This document shows, piece by piece, positions 773 through 41,495 of a stretch of 64,000 bases of DNA (within the stretch, counting starts at the first letter, position 1; each line of letters opens with the position of its first letter). The notes beneath the pieces are model-generated. The model worked only from the letters and a program-made list of their open reading frames with translations, was not told the origin of the DNA and made no database searches. Both the position numbers and the translations under genes were made by a program. This stretch comes from an uncultured Candidatus Saccharibacteria bacterium (GTDB lineage: Bacteria > Patescibacteriota > Minisyncoccia > 2-02-FULL-40-12 > GWA2-44-9): positions 1,816 to 65,815 of the forward strand of contig CAYUJB010000001.1 in the NCBI GenBank assembly GCA_964444955.1, in the 5' to 3' direction.

Positions 773-1189
773 TTAGCTATAGCGACGCTGCGGCCAAAGC
801 ATGAGCGCCAAGAGGCCGCCGATAATGCCAATGTCATACGCGGCTATGCTGCTAAAGCCGGTGACGACTATGGATGCTGCCAGAAAGAGTGCGCCAGCAG
901 GTGCAAACCACTGCTCAAAGAATGCCGTGATAAGACTCGTCGCCACCAATACTTCGAAAATCCCTGTGAGCACAAAAACATTCGTTGCACTCATACCAAG
1001 AACATCGGCGGTGTGAATAATCCACTGCGGAGTAGTCGATCCTATCCACGAGTGCGGTTCCATAAACTTCTCGATACCCAGCCACAGAAATACGATTGCT
1101 AAACCCATGCGGAGAAAGAGGTGCGAGTAATAGTGCGACTGAAACATACAGGTAGTATACGAACCTCCGACACACATCACAACGTGCAC
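773..1189 (-). CDS. DoxX-family small membrane protein (start may be internal, at 1147)
   Basis: 138 aa ORF with 3-4 hydrophobic helices and an LRMGLAIVFLWLGIEKF DoxX-like motif. It sits directly upstream of iscS on the same strand. Confidence 0.5.
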   Translation of the reverse strand: MHVVMCVGGSYTTCMFQSHYYSHLFLRMGLAIVFLWLGIEKFMEPHSWIGSTTPQWIIHTADVLGMSATNVFVLTGIFEVLVATSLITAFFEQWFAPAGALFLAASIVVTGFSSIAAYDIGIIGGLLALMLWPQRRYS

Positions 1190-1194
1190 AACTC

Positions 1195-2475
1195 TTACTC
1201 CTTACACGTTTTTTCCAGATACGCGAGGGTACGATCTGTCAGCATACGCTCCAAGAGCGCACTGCGTAACCGCTGCGGGTCCATTTGCTCCTCCGTTGCC
1301 TGTCCTTGTCGAATAAGCTCCGCCACTGTTTGATTGAGCATTGCCTCGAGCTCCTCAGGCGACACGGCAATCTTTGCGGTCTTTGCCGTCTCACGCAGCA
1401 CCAGGCGAATCTTCACCTGGCGTTGCGCCTCTGCTGTCCAGTCGCGGCGCAAATCTTCCTCAGTCTTTTTCATGCGCGCAAGATACATACTCAGGTCTGT
1501 CCCCCGCTCCTGCAGATCGTGGCCGAATCGGTGCACCATGTCATCGAGCTCGGACTTCACCTGATCCTCAGGCGCCGGCACGCTGGCCTTCTCAATAATT
1601 GCATCGAGGATTGCGAGCCGCAGACGTTGCTGTTCTTTGGCATTCTTCTCTTTAGTAAGGCCATCGCGAAGACTCGTGCGCAAATCGGAGAGTGACGCAA
1701 ATGACCCGAGCGACGCAGCAAAGGCATCATCTGCCACTGGCTTGAGCACCGCCTGCACTTTACGCATCGTCACCGAGAAGTCCACCTTTTTTCCCGCAAT
1801 AGTCTTCTCGTAGTAGTCGTCTGGTGCGGTGAGAGAAAACTCTTTCGTTTCCCCCGCTGCAAGACCAACGAGCTGTTCCTCGAATCCTGGCATAAAGTTC
1901 TTGCCACCAATCACCAGGGGGTGATTGCGGCTGGAGCCACCTTCGATGAGTTTGCCATTCATCATGGCATCGAAGTCAACCTCGCACCGATCTCCCTCGA
2001 GCGCCGGCTCGGTCTTATCAAAGAATGTTGCGCGCATGTTCCGGACCGTATCGAGTGCCTCATCAATCTCGACAGCGCTCACGTCGACAGGTTTTGCAGC
2101 GATGCGAATATCGGCTAGCTCGGGCAAAGTAACCTTCGGCCACAGGTGTACCTGAATCGAATAGCGCAAACCCGTCGCGTCATTTTTCTCCACGTTCAGA
2201 TCGGTCGTGCGCACTACATCCCAACCCTCGCTCGTCACCGCATCACTAAAGCTCGCCTCCAACGCTAGTTCGAGCGCGGTGCTGCCGATAACTTCGGGCT
2301 TCACCTGCTTCTCGATGAGATGCTGCGGTGCTTTGCCCTTCCGAAATCCTTCCACGGTAACATCCTGAGCAATACGCTTCTTTGCTTCGTCGATAAACTT
2401 CTTGAGTTCATCTGCCTCCAGCTCGATATGCGCCGTGAGCGCGTACGGTGAAACCGTTGTGGTAGTAGTTTTCAT
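1195..2475 (-). CDS. tig: trigger factor
   Basis: 426 aa. Has an N-terminal ribosome-binding domain (GFRKGKAP), a central PPIase-like region and a C-terminal helical domain typical of trigger factor. Confidence 0.85.
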   Translation of the reverse strand: MKTTTTTVSPYALTAHIELEADELKKFIDEAKKRIAQDVTVEGFRKGKAPQHLIEKQVKPEVIGSTALELALEASFSDAVTSEGWDVVRTTDLNVEKNDATGLRYSIQVHLWPKVTLPELADIRIAAKPVDVSAVEIDEALDTVRNMRATFFDKTEPALEGDRCEVDFDAMMNGKLIEGGSSRNHPLVIGGKNFMPGFEEQLVGLAAGETKEFSLTAPDDYYEKTIAGKKVDFSVTMRKVQAVLKPVADDAFAASLGSFASLSDLRTSLRDGLTKEKNAKEQQRLRLAILDAIIEKASVPAPEDQVKSELDDMVHRFGHDLQERGTDLSMYLARMKKTEEDLRRDWTAEAQRQVKIRLVLRETAKTAKIAVSPEELEAMLNQTVAELIRQGQATEEQMDPQRLRSALLERMLTDRTLAYLEKTCKE

Positions 2476-3919: not shown

Positions 3920-5608
3920 ATGGTACCTTCAGATATGGCAACGCCTCCCACTGACCCCAAAAAACGAGATGTAAATGCTGAACTCGAGGAAAAGTTGGCA
4001 TCCATTGGCCAGCACGAGCAAGAGTTGGCTGCGCAAACGCTCGCTACCGAACTCTCTCTCCCGTTTCTCAATCTCCAAGGCCTTCAAGTTGATCCCGCAG
4101 CACTCAAAGCAATCTCGGAGGACGAATCTCGCGCGTCTGGTGTTGCGCTTATCCAAGCTCACAGTGCAACTGGCGTTGCGGTGGCCCTTGATCCGCGAAC
4201 GCCCTCTGCGCAAGAAGTGCTGGCGCGCCTCAAAGATACATACGCCGATCTCAAGGTTGTCATTGTGTCCACCGAGACCATGCAATCGGTTTGGCAGCGC
4301 TATGCGACCATCAAGACGGTTGATGTGTTTGAGGTTGGTGCCATCGATGTCGATGACGCAGCGCTCGCAAACGCTACTGCATCTATCAAGAGCATCAACG
4401 ACATCAAGTCCAGGATGGATACCGTAGCAGTGACCGAGCTTTTTGAAATGCTCATCGCCGGAGCGCTCTCCACGCGCTCGTCGGATATTCACTTCGAGCC
4501 CGAGGCGGAAATTGTTCGCCTACGCTATCGCCTCGACGGACTCCTCCATGAAGTAGCCACGATCGATAAAGTGCGATACCAGCGCGTGCTCAATCGCGTC
4601 AAGGTACTCTCGAAGATGAAGCTCAACATTACCAAGGCGCCACAAGACGGACGCTTTACCATTCGCCAGAGTGATATCGCCATCGAAGTGCGCGTCTCGG
4701 TGCTCCCCAGCGAATATGGCGAGTCGATTGTGATGCGACTTCTCGACCCTCGCGGTATTCAGGCAAAACTCGAAGATCTCGGAATGCGCCCCGATGTGCT
4801 GGCAAAGGTCAAAGAGCTGCTCGCTCGTCCCCAGGGAGCTCTCCTCACCACAGGACCAACCGGCTCTGGAAAAACCACCACCCTCTACGCGTTTCTCAAC
4901 TTCCTCAACACTCCCGACATGAAGATCATTACAGTTGAGGACCCTATCGAATACCACATCACGGGAGTCAACCAAACACAGGTAGATCCATCGAAGGGTT
5001 ATACCTTTGCGGGAGGATTGCGTGCAATCGTACGCCAAGACCCCGATATCATTCTTATCGGAGAAATACGCGATCTCGAGACTGCCGGTATCGCACTTGA
5101 AGCAGCGCTCACCGGACACATGGTGCTCTCGACCATTCACACCAATGATGCAGCGGGCACCGTGCCACGTCTTATTGATATCGGTGTGCGTCCTGATACG
5201 GTCGCACCCGCACTCACTATGGCGATGGGCCAGCGCCTGGTACGAAAACTCTGCGAGGAGTGCAAAAAAGAAATCCCCTTGAGTGCTGCGGACAGTGAAA
5301 AACTTCAGGCCAGCCTCAGTGGACTCACTGAGCGCTTTGGACTGGCCTCGTTGACCGCCGGTCTTAAAATCTTCGGCCCCGTCGGCTGTGAGGCCTGCAA
5401 CCATATTGGATACAAGGGCCGCATTGGAGTGTACGAGGTATTCGAAGTTACCCGTTCGATGGAGCGCCTTATTCTTGATGCGGCATCCGTGACCGATATT
5501 CGTGACCTGGCTATCAAAGAAGGGATGGTCACGATGGTGCAGGACGGATACCTAAAACTCCTCAACGGAATCACGTCCATTGAGGAGCTCAGGAGAGTGT
5601 TGGGCTAG
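3920..5608 (+). CDS. pilB: type II secretion / type IV pilus assembly ATPase, GspE/PilB family
   Basis: 562 aa. Has a T2SSE_N-like N-terminus, Walker A GPTGSGKTT, Asp/His boxes, and a tetracysteine motif CEEC...CEAC typical of PilB/GspE. Confidence 0.85.
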   Translation: MVPSDMATPPTDPKKRDVNAELEEKLASIGQHEQELAAQTLATELSLPFLNLQGLQVDPAALKAISEDESRASGVALIQAHSATGVAVALDPRTPSAQEVLARLKDTYADLKVVIVSTETMQSVWQRYATIKTVDVFEVGAIDVDDAALANATASIKSINDIKSRMDTVAVTELFEMLIAGALSTRSSDIHFEPEAEIVRLRYRLDGLLHEVATIDKVRYQRVLNRVKVLSKMKLNITKAPQDGRFTIRQSDIAIEVRVSVLPSEYGESIVMRLLDPRGIQAKLEDLGMRPDVLAKVKELLARPQGALLTTGPTGSGKTTTLYAFLNFLNTPDMKIITVEDPIEYHITGVNQTQVDPSKGYTFAGGLRAIVRQDPDIILIGEIRDLETAGIALEAALTGHMVLSTIHTNDAAGTVPRLIDIGVRPDTVAPALTMAMGQRLVRKLCEECKKEIPLSAADSEKLQASLSGLTERFGLASLTAGLKIFGPVGCEACNHIGYKGRIGVYEVFEVTRSMERLILDAASVTDIRDLAIKEGMVTMVQDGYLKLLNGITSIEELRRVLG

Positions 5609-5838
5609 TAAGGACCTTTATAACCTGTAGGCAAAATCCGCAACCATAGGGCCGCGGGACAGGATAATTCCGAGGAGAGATCCAGTCGAAACCAAATCTT
5701 CCGAGCTAAGAGAGTATCCCGACTGAGTCGTCGTGCGTGGAGCATTGGACTCAGTTGCCTACAGATTATAGAGGTTCTTGCAGCTTCGTCACCCGACACG
5801 GGTTGCCAGCGACTGCTACTATTCTATTCTATTTTTAT

Positions 5839-6861
5839 ATGAATGTCAAGACCCCCACCACAGCCCCTTCGGGCGCCCCTGATGACCAGGTTTTAGACCT
5901 TACCCTTCGGCCAAGGGATTTTAATGAATATGTGGGGCAGGAAAAAACAAAGGAAAACCTGCGTATTGTGCTTGGAGCTGCCCGAAAACGCAACGAAACC
6001 CCTGAACACATCCTCTTTCACGGCCCTTCAGGACTAGGAAAGACCACCCTTGCCTACCTGGTAGCAAAAGAGCTCAACAGCAACCTCCGTATGACCTCGG
6101 GGACGGCTCTGGAGAAGGCCGGCGACGTCGGCTCTATCCTCACCGGACTTTCTGATGGCGACGTGCTCTTCATCGACGAGGTGCACCGCCTCAATAAGAT
6201 GGTGGAGGAGGTCATCTATCCCGCCATGGAGAACTTCAAGCTCGATATCGTCATCGGGAAGGGCAACGCCGCAAAAACACTCCAGATCGATCTTCCTCAC
6301 TTCACGCTTGTTGCCGCGACCACCAAGATTTCGATGCTCTCTGCGCCATTTCGTTCGCGCTTTGGATCTAACTTCCGTCTTGAGTACTACGAGACGCCCG
6401 AGATCGAACGCATCATCACCCGCTCCGCGCAGTTGCTGGGTCTCAACATCACCAAACCCTCACTGAGCTTGATTGCACGCTCTGCACGCGCAACTCCTCG
6501 CGTTGCCAATCGCCTCCTCAAGCGAGTACGCGACTATTCGCAGGTACACAACATTCCTGTTGTCGACGAAAGCACAACCGCCACCGCGCTTGAAATGCTC
6601 GAAGTAGACGCGCAGGGATTGGAGGAAACGGATCGCAAGATTTTGCGCACCATTGCGACTACATTTTCGGGCGGACCGGTGGGCCTCAAGTCAATCGCGG
6701 CAACCGTCTCCGAAGAGGAAAGCACCATCGAGGATGTCTACGAACCTTACCTCATGCGGCTCGGGTTTATCGCACGCACCACCAAGGGACGCGTCATCAC
6801 AAAAGCAGGACGAGATCACATTGGCGTCGCCGACCCCGACTCTCTCCATCTGGATTTCTAG
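5839..6861 (+). CDS. ruvB: Holliday junction branch migration ATPase RuvB
   Basis: Start corrected to ATG 5839 (MNVKTPTT...). The ORF-track start at 5737 adds an unconserved leader. Has the AAA+ motifs GPSGLGKTTLA and LFIDEVHRL and a C-terminal winged helix. Confidence 0.9.
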   Translation: MNVKTPTTAPSGAPDDQVLDLTLRPRDFNEYVGQEKTKENLRIVLGAARKRNETPEHILFHGPSGLGKTTLAYLVAKELNSNLRMTSGTALEKAGDVGSILTGLSDGDVLFIDEVHRLNKMVEEVIYPAMENFKLDIVIGKGNAAKTLQIDLPHFTLVAATTKISMLSAPFRSRFGSNFRLEYYETPEIERIITRSAQLLGLNITKPSLSLIARSARATPRVANRLLKRVRDYSQVHNIPVVDESTTATALEMLEVDAQGLEETDRKILRTIATTFSGGPVGLKSIAATVSEEESTIEDVYEPYLMRLGFIARTTKGRVITKAGRDHIGVADPDSLHLDF

Positions 6862-6888: not shown

Positions 6889-7428
6889 ATGTCCGGACAT
6901 TCAAAGTGGTCCCAAATTAAACACAAGAAAGCACTTGCCGATTCTAAAAAGGGCAAGGCCTTTGGCAAGCTTGCGCAAGCAATCTCAATGGCGGCGCGCG
7001 CAAACCCCGATCCTGCAAAGAACCTCCGTCTCAAGGGCGAGATCGAGCGAGCCAGAGCGGTGAATATGCCCAATGAGAGTATTCAACGTGCTATTCGCCG
7101 CGTGAGTGAAAAAGATGCTTCGGCGCTCGTGGATATTCAACTCGAATTCATTGGCCCCGAAAACTCGGCGATCATTGTTTCTGCAATCACCGATAATAGT
7201 AATCGCACCATTGGTGATCTCAAAAAGATAGCGGCGTCATTTGGGGTGCATATGGTTGGTCGAGGCGCTGTATTGTGGATGTTCCAAAAAATTGACGGCG
7301 AGTTCGTACCATTTACTCCCCTCGATATCACCGATAGCACCGCGCGAGAACACCTTGAGAGCTTCTTGGAGGCGCTCGATGACCATGACGACGTGCAGGA
7401 GCTGGCAACGAATGTAAACCGCTCATGA
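6889..7428 (+). CDS. yebC: YebC/PmpR-family probable transcriptional regulator (short form)
   Basis: N-terminus MSGHSKWSQIKHKKALADSKKGKAFGKL matches the YebC signature. It is only 179 aa and lacks the usual central domain. Located between ruvB and ruvC as in many bacteria. Confidence 0.7.
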   Translation: MSGHSKWSQIKHKKALADSKKGKAFGKLAQAISMAARANPDPAKNLRLKGEIERARAVNMPNESIQRAIRRVSEKDASALVDIQLEFIGPENSAIIVSAITDNSNRTIGDLKKIAASFGVHMVGRGAVLWMFQKIDGEFVPFTPLDITDSTAREHLESFLEALDDHDDVQELATNVNRS

Positions 7429-29843: not shown

Positions 29844-29930
29844 ACTGGCGCTGAGTATAGCAGAAAAACGCTTATAACAAAGAAAAAAAGACGAGCATTG
29901 TTGCTCGTCTTGTCGAGGGGGCCGCCTCCC

Positions 29931-30212
29931 TCACCGCCCGCTCACCTTTTCAAGCGTCTGGCGGATCTCGTGCGGATCCTGTGTGGTGCACACCCGAAAG
30001 TTCATCATCATGATTCCGTCATGATAAGCGGGGCCAGCCCACACGAACACGCACGCCGGCTTCTCCATGCTACTCAGATAGGCCTGGACTGCCCTGAACT
30101 GCTTCCAGTTGAGACTGAGCTCGATCATAGTGTTTTTCACGACGGCTCCTTTTTCTCGAGTTGCTGCTGTTGCGTTGTTGGCGCATCCTGAACCGTCAGG
30201 AGTATGGCCCAC
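29931..30212 (-). CDS. small hypothetical ORF (uncertain)
   Basis: 93 aa ORF with no recognisable motif. It borders the ORF-free structured region and could be non-coding. Confidence 0.2.
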   Translation of the reverse strand: MGHTPDGSGCANNATAATREKGAVVKNTMIELSLNWKQFRAVQAYLSSMEKPACVFVWAGPAYHDGIMMMNFRVCTTQDPHEIRQTLEKVSGR

Positions 30213-30683
30213 CCCGCGATTTTATCGAGTAGTGCTACGGTCTCTTTGTCGCCGGTATGCTTTTTGAGTAGCTCCTGAAGGCTCCGCTCAATAATACTCC
30301 AGGCTTCTTTCTGCGTTTCCACGATGCTTCTACTAAATAATTATGAGTTGTAAAGGTGAATCTCTACAAGGTCTCGAGATAGTCTCAAGAGCTTGAGTGA
30401 GTGGGCGATAATTGGTCACAAGGTATCGCCCCTATCCTCGGGTCTGCGTGCGGGATTACTCCCCCACCAGTTGCCAGAACAACTCCTCCGCCTCCTTCTC
30501 CTTCCCTTCTCTGAAGAGTCGGTTGAAGACTGCATCGAAGTTGCGTCTCGCCTCTTCCGGGAGCGAGACCTGGGGCTCCCGGACGACACGTCCGGTAGTC
30601 CAGCTGTACGCACCAACACGCTCGCCGTCAATCTTGACTAGCTCCATGACACCCTCCTTTAGGGTTGCGGGCGAAATGCCCGA

Positions 30684-30737
30684 TTTCTGTTTCGGCCTGC
30701 TGGCCTCATCAGTCGGAGCGAATACTCCGAGACAGAG
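30684..30737. repeat. 54-nt structured element, copy A
   Basis: ttctgtttcggcctgCtggcctcatcagtcggagcgaatactccgagacagaga. Folds as an outer 10-bp stem (ucuguuucgg/ccgagacaga with one G-U pair) enclosing the hairpins GGCC-ugcu-GGCC and CGGAG-cgaaua-CUCCG. Confidence 0.5.
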
Positions 30738-31099
30738 AGGAAGTTTAAAGAGATTCCTCAGCTCGTATTTTCAGGTTTCCGTTGTAGCGGATTCCCGACT
30801 AACATTGCGATGTGGGTATAACGAACCCTCCATCCAACGCTCTTGCATTAGCTTGACTGCAAGAGAGGCGTGCCGAGGGAAAAGCGTCCCCCGACTTTAG
30901 GCCCTTATAAACTAAACAGAAGTTTATAGCCTACCCGTTCGGATTATGAATGACGTATCACTCATAATATGGGCTCTCCTTCGACGGGAATACCCGATGA
31001 TACGTGCCCCAAGCTGGCACGGGATGGAGTCTCTACAAAGACTCCGGTTGATGCGCGTTTCCCTCGCGGCTGGTGTTCGACACCAGCCGCCATCAACTC

Positions 31100-31153
31100 T
31101 TCTGTTTCGGCCTGTTGGCCTCATCAGTCGGAGCGAATACTCCGAGACAGAGA
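31100..31153. repeat. 54-nt structured element, copy B (53/54 identical to copy A)
   Basis: Direct repeat of copy A, 416 bp downstream, with one C/T difference. Both lie inside the 1.85 kb ORF-free region. Confidence 0.5.
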
Positions 31154-32170
31154 CTGTTAAGGGTGGTCATCCCATCGATTTGTTGACTCGGCCGATACCG
31201 AGCATGCATTTTCTGTTCCCAGGACTGCGATGACACCCCGGCGCGCTGCATTTCAGCAGTCGCAGGATTCGTAGGCGGCCCTTCCATAAAGCAGGGTCTC
31301 GGGGGGCTTCCCAGGCATCTTGCGAGAACACTGACTGCCGTTCAAGCCGGGATTGCTGGATCTCACCCAGCAATGCCCCAAGAGATAGTGCCTTCTCGAA
31401 ATCTGCCTCGAGCGGCGGCTACCCCGGATAAGCTCCTCGGAAGACTTCCAGAACTTCGTGCCTGTCCTAGAGGAATACCCTCCGCGCCTACTAGAGTCGT
31501 TGCCCTGGAGACGCACTTCTTCGGTGCTGCCCTTGCGTCGCACAGTCAACTTTCTAGTATAGTATACTGTTGCCATGTCCCCTCCTAGGGAAAATTGTGC
31601 GGGATTATGCCCGCATCGGAGCGTCCAATAACATTAGGCGCTTTGATGTGGGACCCAGTAGGAAAACTGGGTTGGGGAAGTTTTGTGAGATTCCCCAGCT
31701 CACGGAAGTAGAAGATGAGCGTGACCCCCATTGTGGAATAGCAAGTCCTTCTACTGCCAAAGTTTATGTGAGTTCGGGTTTTTTGTCGGACAGCACGACG
31801 GCATGTCGGACTTTTTAACATTTACCGCGTCTCCCACTCGGGGGGACGGTACCATGTTCCCACTGGGCTATGTAATTATCCCCCTCAAACTTTTCAGCGA
31901 GGAAAGACCCGACCATAGCTTGACTCCCATTTTCGAAGGACTTTGACCTCCGCTTAACTTCAGACATGAGTACTCTTGACTACTTCCAAGAGATCATCTA
32001 TGTCCTCCCACGCTCACTTACCAGTATACGCGTGATTCCATTGACAGAGAAGTATTGACGGTTTCTAATATGTTCTAAGTAAAGAAAATGGCTTAGTACA
32101 AGGTGAATTTATCCACTTTTGTATGTCGAAAAAACTTGACAGATTGGTCTGTTTTTGATAAACTACCCCT

Positions 32171-33007
32171 ATGAACGGTGAAAAAGCACTCGATATTCTC
32201 AAGTTATCCAACAACGAACAGCGGGTACTCCAAGCTGTTCAAGAAGGTTTGGGTACCCCGCTGGCTATTTCGCGCAGTTCAGGTGTTTCCCGAACGACCA
32301 TCTACACTGTACTGGAGAGCCTGAAGGAGCGCGGCCTCGTTAAGTCGACGATTCAGGAGGGACGCAAATCGTGGATTGTCGCTCCTGAACAAGCTATCTC
32401 CGAGGCGACTCGGCATGTTCGTCAGGGGCTATTCACTCAATCCCCCGTCGGGAGAGAGGTTGGTGGCGTCACTGCCACTTCGGACGCCGCGGTAGTTGCC
32501 TACCGTGACGCGCGCGACATCAAGGCGCTTCTCCTTAAGATGCTTTCAGAGCATTCACAGGAAAAACTCTACATCCTCCAGGGCGATACTGCGACAATCG
32601 GGTGGGATAAGATATTCAGCGTTGAGGAGACCAATGCTCTCAATGCTATTATCAAAAAAAACGATATCGTCGTGGAAGCATTTTTACCGCCCGGATGGTT
32701 CGAAAAACATTTTGAACTTCTTGGTAAAGAGTGGGCAACAGAGTTTCATGGTCGTGCTACGCGCGCCAACATTATCCCCGCTGAGTACTTCAAACATGGC
32801 GGTCAAGTTTATGTGTTTAAAGATGCAACCTATTTTCTCGCGCTCCACGATGAGCTCGTTGTTGAGATAAAAAATCCCGATATTCAAAAAGTTATCCTCT
32901 CTTTGTTAGAGTTTCTCCAAGAACATTCCCGGCCTATCGATGTGAACGCTACGCTGCGAAAGTTAGCAGGCATTGGGGAGTACAGAACGAATGATGATAC
33001 AATTTAG
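32171..33007 (+). CDS. winged-HTH transcriptional regulator (TrmB/MarR-like N-terminus) with an uncharacterised C-terminal domain
   Basis: N-terminal LSNNEQRVLQAVQEGLGTPLAISRSSGVSRTTIYTVLESLKERGLV is a typical wHTH. 278 aa. Confidence 0.5.
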   Translation: MNGEKALDILKLSNNEQRVLQAVQEGLGTPLAISRSSGVSRTTIYTVLESLKERGLVKSTIQEGRKSWIVAPEQAISEATRHVRQGLFTQSPVGREVGGVTATSDAAVVAYRDARDIKALLLKMLSEHSQEKLYILQGDTATIGWDKIFSVEETNALNAIIKKNDIVVEAFLPPGWFEKHFELLGKEWATEFHGRATRANIIPAEYFKHGGQVYVFKDATYFLALHDELVVEIKNPDIQKVILSLLEFLQEHSRPIDVNATLRKLAGIGEYRTNDDTI

Positions 33008-33012
33008 GAGTT

Positions 33013-33543
33013 ATGAAGTTGTTTGTAACACGACACGGGATAACCAAAGATAATGAGAACGCTATTATTTCGGGGTGGCGCCCCGGAGAATTAAGCGAGG
33101 TCGGCAAAGCGCAGATGGAGCGTGTTGCCATGCAACTTCGGGACGTCCATATCGATGTAATCTACTCGAGCGACCTTGCTCGATGTCGTGACTCTGTGGC
33201 TATCATCAATACGTTTCACAATGCCCCTGTTGAGTATTTAGAGTTGCTTCGGGAGTTGAGCTCGGGCGAATTCGATGGCCGAGTGGCCGCAGATATGCAG
33301 GCAGCACTACGAGAGCATAAAGGTGAACGTGACCTCTTTGAACCTGAGGGTGGTGAGAGTATGGTCGCGTTTCGTGAGCGTGTTTTGCAATTTCGCACGT
33401 TTCTTGCGAGGGAATCAGAAAAGTTCAAGGATAAAACGATTCTTATCTGTTCGCATAGTACTTGGGTTAGAATATTCCTTGAGCTCGACGAAATGGACCC
33501 CATTGCATTAGAGCTGGTCGAGTATATTGATCCACAAAAATAA
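33013..33543 (+). CDS. histidine phosphatase family protein (phosphoglycerate mutase-like)
   Basis: RHG catalytic motif (LFVTRHGITKDN) and a second His region (ICSHSTWVR). 176 aa. Confidence 0.7.
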   Translation: MKLFVTRHGITKDNENAIISGWRPGELSEVGKAQMERVAMQLRDVHIDVIYSSDLARCRDSVAIINTFHNAPVEYLELLRELSSGEFDGRVAADMQAALREHKGERDLFEPEGGESMVAFRERVLQFRTFLARESEKFKDKTILICSHSTWVRIFLELDEMDPIALELVEYIDPQK

Positions 33544-33572
33544 TAGGCATCGCTAGATACAAGAAATACAGC

Positions 33573-33597
33573 AAAAGCCCCTCTCGGGGCTTTTGCT
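33573..33597 (+). terminator. Rho-independent terminator
   Basis: AAAAGCCCC-TCTC-GGGGCTTTTG immediately after the histidine phosphatase gene. A second long hairpin (acacttggccagccactc...gagtggccaagtgt, 33628-33680) follows and abuts the 3' end of the minus-strand tRNA-Ala. Confidence 0.55.
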
Positions 33598-33680
33598 GGC
33601 GGTAGTCCTGCGCGCCTATGCGCTTGAGGACACTTGGCCAGCCACTCTCTTATGAATGCAGAATAAGGAGTGGCCAAGTG

Positions 33681-35485: not shown

Positions 35486-36226
35486 CTATCCTTTTAGGAT
35501 TCCAAGTTTGTTTTCAAGGGATTGTTGAGGATAGAGGTCTGATGGATAAAGCTCGATGAGTGCAATCTTATAAGCTTGGCAGATTTCCTGTTTCTTTTTC
35601 ACTGAGTGATCGTAGCGCGGACTATCTTTCGCGAGACCGAAGTACTCGATGAATGTGTCCCCTACACGCCAATCAGCCCGATGCTTTGTGGTGGGGTAGC
35701 GGGCATCTCTTTCGTGAGGAATGTCATGCTGAGTAAGCCAATTATCTATTAGTGCCTCGGATATGGAATCGCAGATATGTCCATCGCGCGCCTTTGTTTT
35801 TGTTCGGCGATACATCTGACTATCGTGAGAGCGATTTGGTAGGAGACCTACTTCTTGCAGAAGAGCATTCCACGAACCATACTCACGGATTGCAGCGTAC
35901 GAAATACTTCCGAGTTCTCGACGGGAAGGAGTCCTCTTGAGAGTCTCCGAAAGCTTCTTTACTTCATTTATTATTTGCAGGGAAGTGTATTTTTGTTTTC
36001 CGAGTTCTCGACATGCAACTGAACAAAAAATACTCTTCGCGGTCTTACGAAATGTAATCCCGCAGGAGGCGCAAGTCTTTTCAGGCGCGGGTCTTTTGGG
36101 GTAGCGTTTGTTGTTAACGCTAGCTGAACACGAGCGTGAGCAATAATTGTGGAGTGAAATTGCAGAATCGGGACGTAAAAATGTCTTCCCACAGCTCGCA
36201 TTTTCACACGTGAGCATTTGATTCAT
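35486..36226 (-). CDS. zinc-ribbon protein with an uncharacterised C-terminal domain (hypothetical)
   Basis: Three CxxC/CxxxC pairs in the first 75 aa (CENASCGKTF...CSRSC, CASCGITF...CSVAC). The C-terminus has a DSISEALIDNW...ADWRVGDTFIEYFG pattern, possibly nuclease-like. Embedded among tRNA genes. Confidence 0.4.
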   Translation of the reverse strand: MNQMLTCENASCGKTFLRPDSAISLHNYCSRSCSASVNNKRYPKRPAPEKTCASCGITFRKTAKSIFCSVACRELGKQKYTSLQIINEVKKLSETLKRTPSRRELGSISYAAIREYGSWNALLQEVGLLPNRSHDSQMYRRTKTKARDGHICDSISEALIDNWLTQHDIPHERDARYPTTKHRADWRVGDTFIEYFGLAKDSPRYDHSVKKKQEICQAYKIALIELYPSDLYPQQSLENKLGILKG

Positions 36227-36232
36227 AAATTG

Positions 36233-36304
36233 TCAGGCTGCCGGGATTTGAACCCGGAGTCTCACCGACCCGAACGGTGCGTGTTACCGTTACACTACAG
36301 CCTG
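36233..36304 (-). tRNA. tRNA-Pro (anticodon CGG), CCA not encoded
   Basis: Acceptor CAGGCUG/CAGCCUG with C1:G72 as in bacterial tRNA-Pro. D-arm GTGT-AACGGTA-ACAC. Anticodon stem CACCG/CGGTG with loop TTCGGGT (G37). T-arm CCGGG-TTCAAAT-CCCGG. Confidence 0.8.
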
Positions 36305-39218: not shown

Positions 39219-39842
39219 ATGAGTAATGTGCTTGATTTGAAGGATCATCAGCCGGGCGATGCGGTGCCCGAGCAGTTAGTTGCCGAAGTTGCGCCACTCG
39301 CGATTGCGCAGACCACATCGATCGACGAGATGGGTGAGATGCAAAGCGAAGGGTTGCCGCCAGCGACGTTGGCCGGTTTTCATTTTCCCACCGCCACTGA
39401 ATGGACGGCGCATCATCCTCTCCAGGGTTCAGCGCGCAAGCGCCACATGCTTTTCTCTGGGCTCATCGTACTGTTGGGCGTTTTGATTTCACTCTGGCAG
39501 CGCAGTCCCGCAGCGTTTATCGTGCTTCTTATCGGTGCTGGTGTACTCGAGCTACGCGAGCATATGAGTAAGCCCATGACCGTTGGCGTCGATGATCGTG
39601 GCATCAAGATTGATGATCATCGCTATGACCACGCGTCGTTTTCGTCATTTCACATTCACCGTATGCCAGATGATACGCTCGAGTTGAGTCTCCGTTCAGA
39701 TCAGCGCTTCCTCCCCCATCTACGCTTGCCGCTGGGCCAGCAGGATCCTCATCAGCTCCACGCTATTCTTACCCAGTACATTCCCCAGGGCGATCACAAG
39801 ATCCCGCTGGTGGACTACCTGATTCGGAAGCCGCGGGAGTAG
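39219..39842 (+). CDS. membrane protein, possibly a bacterial PH (bPH_2-like) domain protein
   Basis: 207 aa. Two adjacent TM helices (LFSGLIVLLGVLISLW, AAFIVLLIGAGVLEL) followed by a roughly 90-aa soluble domain. Confidence 0.35.
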   Translation: MSNVLDLKDHQPGDAVPEQLVAEVAPLAIAQTTSIDEMGEMQSEGLPPATLAGFHFPTATEWTAHHPLQGSARKRHMLFSGLIVLLGVLISLWQRSPAAFIVLLIGAGVLELREHMSKPMTVGVDDRGIKIDDHRYDHASFSSFHIHRMPDDTLELSLRSDQRFLPHLRLPLGQQDPHQLHAILTQYIPQGDHKIPLVDYLIRKPRE

Positions 39843-39998
39843 CGCACTCGGTAGGACGCTCGCTCCGCTCTCAGTAAAGCGGTTGTGCTCTCGGTATGCG
39901 GACATACCGAGCGACCTCGCTCGAAAGCAAAAGGAACGCGACGCGTTCCTTTTGCTTCACTCACTCAGTGCTCTCGGTAGGACGCTCGCTCCGCTCGC
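39843..39998. repeat. direct repeats derived from the 3' end of tRNA-Arg(GCG), plus palindromic hairpins
   Basis: Copy C3 (39966-39996) shares gtgctctcggtagga with the tRNA 3' end at 40176-40190, and shares ctcggtaggacgctcgctccgctc with copy C1 (39846-39870). A partial copy at 39884 (gtgctctcggta) runs into the palindrome CTCGGTATG-cgga-CATACCGAG. Confidence 0.5.
39929..39953. terminator. bidirectional intrinsic terminator hairpin
   Basis: AAAAGGAACGCG-a-CGCGTTCCTTTT: a perfect 8-bp GC-rich stem flanked by an A-run and a T-run. Confidence 0.5.
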
Positions 39999-40138
39999 TA
40001 TCTCACGCGAGTCGGGCTCGATTGCCTATGGCTATTCTCGCCCTCACTTTCTGAAACCATGCGGTTTCAGTTCTTCCACCACGGGAGAGACTTTCTCTCC
40101 CGACCCCTCTCTGTTCGATTCCTGCCCAGGACGAGTAA

Positions 40139-40170
40139 CAACAACGCCCAGATATATCTGGGCGTTGTTG
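40139..40170. terminator. perfect 32-nt palindrome hairpin at the 3' end of tRNA-Arg(GCG)
   Basis: CAACAACGCCCAGATA|TATCTGGGCGTTGTTG ends 8 nt from the tRNA 3' end, so it is a likely tRNA transcript terminator. Confidence 0.5.
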
Positions 40171-40177
40171 TACCTGT

Positions 40178-40248
40178 GCTCTCGGTAGGAATCGAACCTA
40201 CATTGCTAGCTCCGCAAGCTAGCGTCCTATCCATTGAACGACGAGAGC
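40178..40248 (-). tRNA. tRNA-Arg (anticodon GCG by hand fold), CCA not encoded
   Basis: Acceptor GCTCTCG/CGAGAGC with discriminator A. Anticodon stem CTAGC/GCTAG is perfect, with loop TTGCGGA. T-arm GTAGG-TTCGATT-CCTAC. An Arg GCG anticodon is unusual, so the identity call is moderate. Confidence 0.65.
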
Positions 40249-40391
40249 GTTCGTAGCCGAGCCAGCATACCTGATTATTCCCCTATTTACAATACTGTGT
40301 CGTAATCTTACGACGCGGAAAAGCTTGACTAATTTACAATAATAATGTAGTATAGTGTACGTTCCACTACGTTCTTTACCAAGGAGAAGTC

Positions 40392-41495
40392 ATGAAATAC
40401 ACATCAGTCGTTGCCGTTTTCGCCGTTGTATTGACGGCCTCTGTCGCTTCGGCGCAGCCGCCGGTCAAGCCGATCGTCTTTGCTGGTCCGTCCGGCAAAC
40501 AGCTGTGCGCCGCCGCTCTCGCATCCGGCAATTACCGGGTGTACGAGCCGACGTACTTCAATCTCCACGACCGAAATCCCACCAACGGGATGGATCGGAT
40601 TCGTGTGCAGCTCGAAGTCGACATGTGTATCAAGATGCGCATTGTCGGCGGCGTGCAGTTCGTCGTGCAGCGTGCCGGGACCTGGTTTCGTGCTCTGAAA
40701 ATGAGCGACGGTTCCTTGGCCCTCTACGCTCGCGATGATTGCGGCAACGAAGTTTTCGATGTCAGCTTTCCCGCTCCCCCGCTCCCAGTTGAGCCCCAGC
40801 GGTTGGTCATTCCGGAAATCGTATCGCAACCCGAGCGTCCTCGGCAGTTGATGACGCCGGTTGTGATCCAACCGCCTCCCCCTCCTGACGACGAAGAGGA
40901 GAGCGAGGGCGATTCTCGCTGGGGCATCACGGCTGGTGCAATGCTCGGCGAGTTTGACTCCGTTCCTATCGGGCGTGCAATCAACAGGATCTCGGGCCGC
41001 ACCGTATGCATGAAGGGTCGCGAGTTTGATCTGGGCGTGGCGCACGGTGACGTCGAGTCATCGGTGTGGCGACTCACCTTCGCTCTCAAATCGATCCGCG
41101 AAGGATCGTTTACCCAGCGTGACTGTCCCAACTGTGGTGAAGAGGTCAAAACGATTGCATCATCGGGGGTGCACGTCCTGGGAGTTCAACTCGAACGGCA
41201 ATTCCGCATCTCAGTACACGAAGGTCGTGGCATCCAGCCCATGGTGGAAGTCCACGTGGGTGCTGGCCTCATCAGTGGTAAAGCGCACGAGCAAACGCTC
41301 CGCAATTCCGTTGTCACCGCAACGCGAAATGTGGATGCAAGCGCGCTGATGAACTCCAAGGTCTTCCCCATCGCAGGGGCGGGTGTCGGCTTCATGGGTG
41401 CACTCAGTGACCATGTCGGCTATGCCGTCACGGTGGCAGGCATTGAGTATCCCGGTCGGTACTACGGGCGCATCGCGCTCACGTACTGGCCGTAA
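40392..41495 (+). CDS. secreted protein with a poly-Pro/acidic linker (hypothetical)
   Basis: Signal peptide MKYTSVVAVFAVVLTASVASA, then a PPPPPDDEEESEGD segment. The C-terminus ends in the aromatic TYWP. Followed by a terminator at 41518-41545. Confidence 0.5.
   Translation: MKYTSVVAVFAVVLTASVASAQPPVKPIVFAGPSGKQLCAAALASGNYRVYEPTYFNLHDRNPTNGMDRIRVQLEVDMCIKMRIVGGVQFVVQRAGTWFRALKMSDGSLALYARDDCGNEVFDVSFPAPPLPVEPQRLVIPEIVSQPERPRQLMTPVVIQPPPPPDDEEESEGDSRWGITAGAMLGEFDSVPIGRAINRISGRTVCMKGREFDLGVAHGDVESSVWRLTFALKSIREGSFTQRDCPNCGEEVKTIASSGVHVLGVQLERQFRISVHEGRGIQPMVEVHVGAGLISGKAHEQTLRNSVVTATRNVDASALMNSKVFPIAGAGVGFMGALSDHVGYAVTVAGIEYPGRYYGRIALTYWP

Follow-up and report, generated by a model that had tools for sequence, protein, structure and literature searches.

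Stacked tRNA-end copies behind a tRNA-Arg(GCG) gene of Candidatus Saccharibacteria: a possible array of short insertions without reading frames

The region analysed here lies between the stop codon of a conserved open reading frame (ORF) and the gene for tRNA-Arg(GCG) of an uncultured Candidatus Saccharibacteria bacterium, in a stretch of 64,000 nucleotides (GenBank assembly GCA_964444955.1, contig CAYUJB010000001.1, positions 1,816 to 65,815 of the forward strand) that is called the window throughout. DNA without coding capacity has been inserted into the T-loop/3' end of the tRNA gene, duplicating 15 nt, regenerating the tRNA and placing a new terminator-like hairpin beside it, and three copies of the tRNA end are stacked in the 330 bp that separate the gene from the ORF. 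The reading that we favor, with about even confidence, is that these 330 bp consist of three short ORF-less insertions, which arrived serially as miniature non-autonomous elements and are not decayed islands. Because the tRNA gene is on the minus strand, "downstream of the tRNA" means leftwards in window coordinates. From the tRNA to the ORF, the features of the region are:

40176..40248 (start 40176/7), minus strand: tRNA-Arg(GCG), intact (ARAGORN; Rfam tRNA, 63.7 bits)
40176-40190, in plus-strand coordinates: DR0, the reference copy of the last 15 nt of the tRNA, part of the tRNA itself
39983..40175, minus strand: unit 1, the 193-bp insertion nearest the tRNA, delimited by comparison with insertion-free relatives
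40138..40171, no strand: H1, a perfect 17-bp palindrome (arms 40138-54 and 40155-71) that begins 5 nt past the tRNA 3' end
40113..40129, plus strand: inverted copy of the T-loop and 3' T-stem, GTTCGATTCCTGCCCAG, 88% complementary over 17 nt to 40181-97
40083..40101, no strand: hairpin GGGAGAG-acttt-CTCTCCC (arms 40083-89 and 40095-101), from the sequence and predicted folds
40051..40070, no strand: hairpin CTGAAACC-atgc-GGTTTCAG (arms 40051-58 and 40063-70), from the sequence and predicted folds
39968..39982, minus strand: DR1, an exact copy of the last 15 nt of the tRNA, followed on the plus strand by the 14-nt insert end CGCTCGCTCCGCTC (39983-96)
39925..39967, no strand: T0, a terminator-like, bidirectional hairpin (16-bp arms, 39925-40 and 39942-57) with the trailer cactcactca
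39885..39923, minus strand: unit 2, collapsed; DR2 (13/15) folded on its own inverted copy, with a second, overlapping hairpin
39841..39870, minus strand: remnant of unit 3; DR3 (39842-56) plus the 14-nt insert end of unit 1, overlapping the TAG stop codon at 39840-42

The plus-strand 15-mer GTGCTCTCGGTAGGA is the reverse complement of positions 60-74 of the tRNA and covers the last T of the T-loop, the 3' T-stem, the 3' acceptor strand, the discriminator A, and one extra C. When up to three mismatches were allowed, seven matches to it were found in the 64 kb, against 1.2 ± 1.2 expected, a number that none of 100 shuffled sequences reached, and four of the seven fall inside 350 bp. An earlier note on this DNA, made from its letters without database searches, had reported that the tRNA end recurs at 39966-39982, again with one mismatch at 39846-39859, and as a third partial copy at 39884. 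The first of these proved to be exact (39968-39982) and the third is present at 39885-39899 with two mismatches (13/15; GTGCTCTCGGTATGC); a single mismatch holds only for the 39846-56 part of the other, which over its full length at 39842-39856 has two (13/15; GCGCACTCGGTAGGA). The 14-nt extension said to be common to two copies was likewise found, as part of a repeat (39841-70 and 39967-96) that is identical at 28 of 30 positions, 24 nt being exact, and that includes CGCTCGCTCCGCTC; all the palindromes listed are also present. What had been missed is the inverted copy of the T-loop and 3' T-stem (GTTCGATTCCTGCCCAG, 40113-40129), which is complementary to 40181-97 at 15 of 17 positions and is the sole occurrence of this motif in the window outside a tRNA (none expected). 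Displaced 3' copies were found for no other tRNA of the window.

The nature of the DNA between DR1 and the tRNA became apparent when the locus was compared with 16 syntenic related loci (L003, L005/6, L007, L026-L034, L040, L041/2, and L043). In L005/L006, L007, and L034, a hairpin (AAAGGAACGC..GCGTTCCTTT) and its trailer abut the tRNA. The order in L005/6 and L007 is the ORF stop codon, about 12 nt, the hairpin CAAAAGGAACGC..GCGTTCCTTTTG, a trailer ending in ctcac(t/g)(c/t)g, and then directly the tRNA; L034 is arranged in the same way but with about 55 nt, including another small hairpin, ahead of the hairpin. By BLASTn, window positions 39921-82 are 87.5% identical to L005 over 64 nt (E 4e-10) and 85% identical to L007 (85-88% overall), and in the window the hairpin, trailer, and 15-mer remain together at 39925-82, now 193 bp from the tRNA body. 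The tRNA body and the promoter region upstream of it are also conserved between the window and the relatives. Judging from this orthology, T0 is the ancestral 3' flank of the tRNA, equivalent to that of L005, L007, and L034, and DR1 is the displaced ancestral 3' end. Since the hairpin and trailer of the relatives abut the tRNA while their window homologue lies 193 bp off, 39983-40175 is inserted DNA, which split the ancestral tRNA between T-loop position 60 and the sequence past position 74, with regeneration of the tRNA. The 193-bp insert is flanked by a perfect 15-bp direct repeat (39968-82 and 40176-90). The view of the earlier note that duplicated tRNA ends mark an insertion is supported by the ancestral flank that abuts the tRNA in L005/L006 and L007.

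Orthology was taken from BLASTn, and a MAFFT alignment of the window with the insertion-free loci was set aside, as it misplaced the gap and put the hairpin of the relatives on H1. Two other accounts of the repeats were rejected: a 126-bp tandem duplication, for which only 30 nt are common, and a decayed tRNA copy at 39968-40040 (14/17 to the anticodon arm), where the match is weak and the ancestral flank explains the 15-mer better.

Read in the sense of the tRNA, unit 1 consists of 5 nt, H1 (40171-40138), the inverted T-arm copy (40129-13), the hairpin GGGAGAG/CTCTCCC, the hairpin CTGAAACC/GGTTTCAG, about 55 nt with a weak hairpin, and GAGCGGAGCGAGCG, after which DR1 follows. It folds far better than shuffled sequences (z -6.5 and -8.4). 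The inverted copy GTTCGATTCCTGCCCAG is able to pair with the direct copy at 39968-82, closing the insert into a stem, and in the minimum-energy fold of the plus strand the direct and inverted tRNA pieces do pair (GGUAGGA:UCCUGCC), with the hairpins enclosed. H1 is a terminator-like hairpin delivered by the insertion, and unit 1 is the youngest of the three units. A simple terminator scan called neither H1 nor T0, because their T runs fall inside extended stems. No ORF with a family match and no integrase remnant was found in unit 1 by a Pfam scan, and its interior (39997-40137) had no match in the window, the related loci, viral contigs, phages, or plasmids. The possibility that 40113-35 is the 3' end of another tRNA was discarded, as no tRNA of the window matches it and an inverted copy of the tRNA-Arg T-arm (15/17) fits better. 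The flank and outer arms of H1 (40161-40175; AGGTACAACAACGCC...GGCGTTGTTGT) also form a hairpin behind tRNA-Ser(TGA) in L028 (99-113); this match is weak (E 0.09) and the apical parts differ, and the position relative to the tRNA end is equivalent.

On the far side of T0, we read units 2 and 3 as two reduced older units, which gives a stack of three. The palindrome of unit 2 (39890-98 and 39903-11; CTCGGTATG cgga CATACCGAG) shares 4 nt with a small hairpin, CGAGCG-acct-CGCTCG (39908-23), which was missing from the earlier note; the two are mutually exclusive. Window positions 39885-39926, which hold both hairpins of unit 2, are 92.9% identical over 42 nt to L032 4722-4763 (E 1e-10), despite only about 50% identity between the neighbouring proteins of the window and L032. 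Unit 3 is a second copy of the junction formed by GAGCGGAGCGAGCG and the tRNA end (39870-39842), and it abuts the ORF stop codon. The identical 14-nt insert end is therefore joined to a tRNA-end copy at two places, 24 nt being exact, which points to two events by one kind of element. The serial events that had been suggested for this locus fit the three stacked copies.

Behind several tRNA genes of related Patescibacteria there is an undescribed module of about 128 nt, supported by covariation, which clamps a copy of the tRNA 3' end. At the tRNA-Arg(GCG) locus, where pieces derived from tRNA recur among the relatives, the module is found in L029, L033 (two in tandem), and L043, and in truncated form in L003; elsewhere it lies behind tRNA-Ser(TGA), tRNA-Ser(CGA), and tRNA-Pro in L029 and behind tRNA-Ser(CGA) in L033. 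The copies are located as follows:

L029: 2226-2350 (plus), 5102-5226 (minus), 5569-5696 (plus), and 6568-6758 (minus)
L033: 164-291 (plus), 1093-1220 (minus), and 1294-1422 (minus)
L043: 1030-1158 (minus)
L003: 10797-10870 (plus)

Every copy bears the T-arm and 3' end of its cognate tRNA. In the sense of the tRNA, the order is the tRNA, a terminator hairpin, an inverted copy of its own T-loop and 3' T-stem, GCCCGGAGCGATG, a hairpin with the loop AGAAG, CCGCGAGGGC.GGAGCCC, a hairpin with the loop GACG, GAGAGTG.AGGGTGA, and a direct copy of the tRNA 3' end that starts in the T-loop. The RNAalifold consensus has four elements, namely a stem that closes the module by pairing the inverted with the direct tRNA piece, a short helix, and two hairpins. 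When eight copies were aligned by means of the model, 94.8% of cells paired, compared with 70% in shuffles, compensatory changes occurred in 24 of the 35 pairs, and controls with slid partners paired at 30-43%. This support is somewhat inflated by the fitting of the alignment to the model. The module of L043, which was outside the training set, scored 107 bits on the covariance model. On the tRNA-sense strand G.T pairs outnumber A.C pairs (15 against 6), which indicates that this is the strand that folds. The unpaired motifs GGAGCG...CGCGAG (a GGA/GAG internal loop) and the loops AGAAG and GACG are invariant. In Rfam searches only tRNAs were matched in the window, and no family covered the modules in L029, L033, and L032 at E <= 1.

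Half-modules at different tRNAs within L033 are 94-95% identical and mosaic, while modules at one tRNA across different genomes are 69-81% identical, and in a tree of the neighbouring protein the module-bearing loci are interspersed with fragment-free ones. These identities and the patchy occurrence suggest that modules have moved or been exchanged. In L031 and L028 the terminator corresponds to the second hairpin of the module type seen in L033, and L028 also retains the right end of a module and a tRNA-end copy beside the stop codon.

The window insert has the architecture of the module, with H1 (40138-71), the inverted copy (40113-29), the hairpins at 40083-101 and 40051-70, and the direct copy (39968-82) succeeding one another in the sense of the tRNA. 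Locus (L043, L033, L029, L003), orientation, and order of parts are alike, and in both cases the last direct copy abuts the ORF stop codon; the position of unit 3 corresponds to the module ends in L043, L029, L033, and L028. The insert differs in being longer (193 nt against about 128) and in a direct repeat that starts at T-loop position 60, where that of the module starts at 57-58. As for the module linkers GCCCGGAGCGATG and GAGAGTGnAGGGTGA, the insert has beside its direct copies only look-alikes with four mismatches (GAGAGCGGAGCGAGC at 39872-58), no better than background. We do not class it as a member of the module family, although it works in a similar way; it may be diverged or of a different lineage.

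In the mechanism that we propose, each insertion would have entered the tRNA gene between the T-loop and the 3' end, bringing a replacement for the last ~15 nt that left the tRNA intact and pushing the earlier 3' end, with whatever lay behind it, further off. The newest unit (39983-40175) would have supplied the new terminator-like palindrome beside the tRNA, and pairing of its inverted copy with the displaced direct copy would close it into a multi-hairpin fold. The older units would have been reduced, one to a hairpin of direct and inverted tRNA-end pieces (39885-39911) and the other to the 30-nt junction of insert end and tRNA end (39841-70). The units could have been moved in trans by a site-specific recombinase crossing over in the T-loop, and their analogues, from which they may have diverged, would be the ~128-nt modules behind tRNA-Arg, Ser, and Pro in related Patescibacteria. 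What we infer here is that the units are mobile, what kind of enzyme moves them, where crossover takes place, and that the closing stem serves as a folded single-strand copy of the target.

The direct repeats bear on the kind of enzyme. They measure 15 nt in the window and 18-20 nt at tRNA-Pro, tRNA-Ser(CGA), and tRNA-Ser(TGA) of L029, the lengths across units being 15, 18, 19, and 20 nt; all of them begin in the T-loop and, at the junctions read, end about at the tRNA 3' end. Varying lengths with boundaries at tRNA landmarks fit an identity block of the attachment-site (att) type, kept by selection on the tRNA, and not a target-site duplication of fixed stagger. This would fit an element that carries an identity block in the manner of integrase att sites. 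By the same analogy, the inverted copy and the tRNA-end copy, being in one strand, would rebuild a duplex target, which is reminiscent of folded attC sites and of the attP site of CTX phage.

Several observations weigh against this interpretation. T0, the ancestral terminator, separates units 2 and 3 from unit 1, an order that would not be expected under simple accretion at one site, unless T0 itself arrived with an earlier unit, and the insert end of unit 3 is identical to that of unit 1 although unit 3 is expected to be older. The covariance models of the module (R1 and R2) miss the window insert: their best matches are below 12 bits and are trivial hairpins, and with filters off the best scores in 39600-40500 are 9.6 bits (R1) and 11.6 bits (R2), both at the T0 hairpin, where true members score 70-135 bits and the divergent Arg copy of L029 scores 21 bits. 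The interior of the insert has no significant similarity to any module, local alignments being no better than those of shuffles. With neither a model match nor sequence similarity, homology to the module family is unproven, and the window unit is so far a single instance. The comparison covers 16 related loci, in which the identity of the neighbouring protein to that of the window never exceeds 69%, and some of the fragment-free relatives (L031) carry decayed module pieces, so that the 'ancestral' states are not clean. No enzyme was identified in the scanned window ORFs or the 16 related loci, and no free, excised, or polymorphic form was seen.

It appears unlikely that the stack is instead what remains of integrase-bearing islands or prophages that integrated serially and were then shortened by deletions to about 30-190 bp next to their att sites, leaving scars like those of cis-mobilizable elements (CIMEs). 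In the accretion of integrative elements at tRNA att sites, described for CIMEs and for integrative conjugative and integrative mobilizable elements (ICE/IME), newer arrivals displace older ones and att sites are kept without integration genes (PMC5704250), and tycheposon islands contain scattered partial tRNAs (10.1101/2020.12.28.424599). The window resembles both, in that foreign DNA lies between direct copies of the tRNA 3' end, the tRNA is regenerated, and newer units push older ones away in a stack. Unlike these elements, however, its units span 30-190 bp and not kilobases, each carries an inverted copy of the target that can pair with the direct one, and the version of the relatives has a fold supported by covariation. 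Pfam scans of about 43 main window ORFs and five small ORFs overlapping the region detected no integrase, recombinase, or transposase domain, the insert holds no integrase fragment, and none of the 16 related loci has an integrase-bearing element. The tyrosine integrase or decayed island put forward in the earlier note was therefore not borne out, and the comparison of orthologous loci that it had recommended revealed no occupied, integrase-bearing variant at the tRNA-Arg locus. The note had also held that repeats belonging to a conserved structure, with integrase-bearing variants nowhere, would speak against its proposal; about half of this applies, as the repeats do lie in a conserved structure and no such variant was seen, but the structure is an insertion and not an ancestral terminator.

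A truncated serine-recombinase N-terminus in L030, situated where the tRNA would be expected, is in favor of decayed islands. It is a resolvase-like fragment of 30 amino acids (MKYILYARKSTEEDDRQVLSIEAQL...; 7053-7262, plus strand; Resolvase, E 0.003) just downstream of the conserved ORF in this distant relative, in which tRNA-Arg(GCG) was not found within the ~1.6 kb past the ORF, where the contig ends. Searches of viral, phage, and plasmid sequences with the region gave nothing useful. The plasmid BLAST returned one chance match of 45 nt in Rhizobium, and the phage collection was negative for both the region and the canonical module. Viral contigs matched neither the 26-mer from the 3' end of the tRNA nor the T-arm piece of foreign appearance; the 15-mer had 17 matches, all without the extension and taken as chance, and the module linker had four chance matches, with no model match and no tRNA. 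A metagenome scan for the junction CTCGGTAGGACGCTCGCTCC found only an unrelated tandem-repeat contig, L025 (MPMC02001739.1), in which degenerate repeats of the GGACGCTCGGTA type at 350-830 contain the 20-mer of the window junction, likewise taken as chance. The relatives also speak against decay: modules without ORFs, whole and conserved in structure, occupy this position and that behind other tRNAs at a similar size (about 128 nt), so that the small size looks native and functional; independent deletions would not be expected to yield one architecture repeatedly.

Less probable again is an origin in local events with no mobile element, in which pieces of the tRNA end would have been copied, in direct and inverted orientation, through replication slippage, unequal crossing-over, and template switching where the terminator hairpins lie. 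In its favor, the tRNA-end quasi-palindrome of unit 2 (39890-39911) is what hairpin-templated switching typically yields, a perfect palindrome separates the inverted T-arm copy from the tRNA end, there is a local duplication of the 30-nt junction, and no enzyme was found. Local copying would not, however, account for the ~140 bp of the insert interior that are unique and not derived from nearby sequence, nor for repeat boundaries that fall at the T-loop and the tRNA end in units that are not tandem copies of each other. The homologous cores that the relatives carry behind four different tRNAs are beyond what it can produce.

We give the least credit to a purely functional explanation, in which the region is a structured RNA or terminator region serving the convergent ORF and the tRNA, or an RNA that imitates the 3' end of the tRNA or base-pairs with it: the strong compensatory covariation, the invariant unpaired motifs, the preponderance of G.T over A.C on the tRNA-sense strand, the 93% conservation of unit 2 with L032 next to a protein with about 50%, and the resemblance of T0 and H1 to bidirectional terminators all accord with it, but the structure is absent from several close relatives (L005, L007, L026, L034), a GC-rich hairpin with a T run stands between tRNA and module in L029 (Arg and Pro), L033 (proximal Arg), and L043, making read-through from the tRNA unlikely there, no consistent promoter was seen by eye, no Rfam family matches, and a function is in any case compatible with an origin by insertion.

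Serial insertion of miniature elements, which we continue to prefer, invites comparison with other short mobile units. Integron arrays, including clusters that lack an integrase (CALIN), consist of short units beside one fixed site, with structured ends, entry at the proximal end, and often no nearby integrase (PMC4889954). The window array would resemble such an array with entry next to the tRNA, and its unit is similar to the cassettes in its structured end with inverted arms, the outer of which is repeated directly at the next junction. Unlike attC, its core is the T-loop and 3' end of a tRNA, 15-20 nt in length, and not GTTRRRY; its fold is branched with several hairpins and not a hairpin of R and L boxes; its only cargo is the terminator hairpin; and IntI was not found in the window. 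The core sites of integrons are R'' RYYYAAC and R' GTTRRRY, and the R''/R' consensus does not apply here: by inspection, the T-loop reads GTTCGAT / ATCGAAC, with a C as the fourth base where GTTRRRY needs a purine.

Non-autonomous transposons such as miniature inverted-repeat and palindrome-associated transposable elements (MITE/PATE type) are small, ORF-less, rich in hairpins, and flanked by a target duplication, and casposons make duplications of 14-15 bp at tRNA 3' ends. The window unit is likewise small, without ORFs, and rich in hairpins, with a 15-bp target duplication at a tRNA 3' end. It departs from these elements in a repeat length that varies among modules (15-20 nt) and tracks tRNA landmarks and in an inverted repeat that is the T-arm of each tRNA itself and not specific to the element; neither a transposase nor Cas1 was seen. 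At tyrT of E. coli, tandem repeats downstream of the gene each contain the 3' end of tRNA-Tyr, and copies of the tRNA 3' end in one orientation just downstream of the gene are indeed what is found here. The tyrT repeats, in contrast, are tandem copies of one unit, while the units of the window differ in their interiors and one of them is demonstrably an insertion.

More tentatively, and as something less likely than not, we suggest that Patescibacteria may harbor an undescribed class of folded, ORF-less mobile elements that target tRNA genes, with the window as a divergent array of three units. Each unit of this class would carry a replacement tRNA 3' end and a terminator and would fold into a single-strand attachment site; the recombinase would be encoded elsewhere, possibly by the host, and units would accumulate as cassette-like arrays. 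The window array is, as we see it, a divergent and partly eroded example of the phenomenon seen in the modules of the relatives.

Two features of the neighborhood lie outside the element:

39219..39842, plus strand: conserved hypothetical protein of 207 amino acids, convergent with the tRNA, used as the synteny anchor
36232-36304, minus strand: tRNA-Pro(CGG), adjoining an HNH_repeat ORF

Homologues of the 207-amino-acid protein were found only in metagenome-assembled genomes of Patescibacteria or Saccharibacteria. Around tRNA-Arg(GCG) are the housekeeping genes dnaA, dnaN, nusA, ruvB, tyrS, polA, and recG and those for trigger factor and the CCA-adding enzyme, and the window also encodes sortase/DUF11 surface proteins and a TraG-like ATPase. 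An identical contig of 5.8 kb was found in another assembly; L001 is identical to the window, and L002 ends at window position 40008. The HNH_repeat ORF (homing-endonuclease-associated; Pfam E 5e-9; 35486-36226, minus strand) begins 6 nt past the 3' end of tRNA-Pro, and in L003 an HNH protein sits between two tRNA-Ser genes. Such endonucleases at tRNA genes might be linked to rearrangements among these loci. About 3.8 kb of the window (29850-33680), containing a TrmB-like regulator, a histidine phosphatase, and an ORF-poor 2.3 kb (29.9-32.2 kb), separate a UvrD-like helicase gene from tRNA-Ala(CGC), which are adjacent in L005; no copy of the tRNA-Ala end flanks this stretch.

Single tRNA genes are also inverted in place, relative to the window, among otherwise syntenic relatives. 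This is the case for tRNA-Arg(GCG), on the plus strand in L003; for tRNA-Ser(CGA), on the minus strand in L003, L029, and L032; and for tRNA-Pro, on the plus strand in L005, L027, L029, and L032. Duplications are also present on the 5' side (L029 6910-6985; L032 4880-4994; L027 2490-2531; L032 831-895). About 100 nt upstream of tRNA-Arg(GCG) its first 12-15 nt occur a second time, with hairpins between, and 42-46 nt from the 5' end of tRNA-Pro are repeated upstream of it, where a hairpin and an AT-rich stretch resembling a promoter come next. In L027 (6645-7082, minus strand) and L040 (4044-4481, minus strand), a NUDIX-family gene of 145 amino acids lies between the ORF and the 3' end of tRNA-Arg, and no tRNA fragments are present.

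Genes for tRNAs are classic landing sites of integrating elements, and the occupants of such sites known to us are kilobase-sized and encode their own integrase. Those described here span 30-190 bp (window) or about 128 nt (relatives) and have no genes, yet they share a precise, repeated architecture. In practical terms, the units provide tRNA genes with terminators, and the repeats to which they give rise fragment assemblies and may mislead programs that locate prophages and islands by the duplication of tRNA ends. Should the units be mobile, they would correspond, at tRNA genes, to the cassettes of integrons or to MITEs, and this in bacteria whose genomes are tiny and are thought to contain few mobile elements; they would also account for the rearrangements of single tRNA genes among these genomes.

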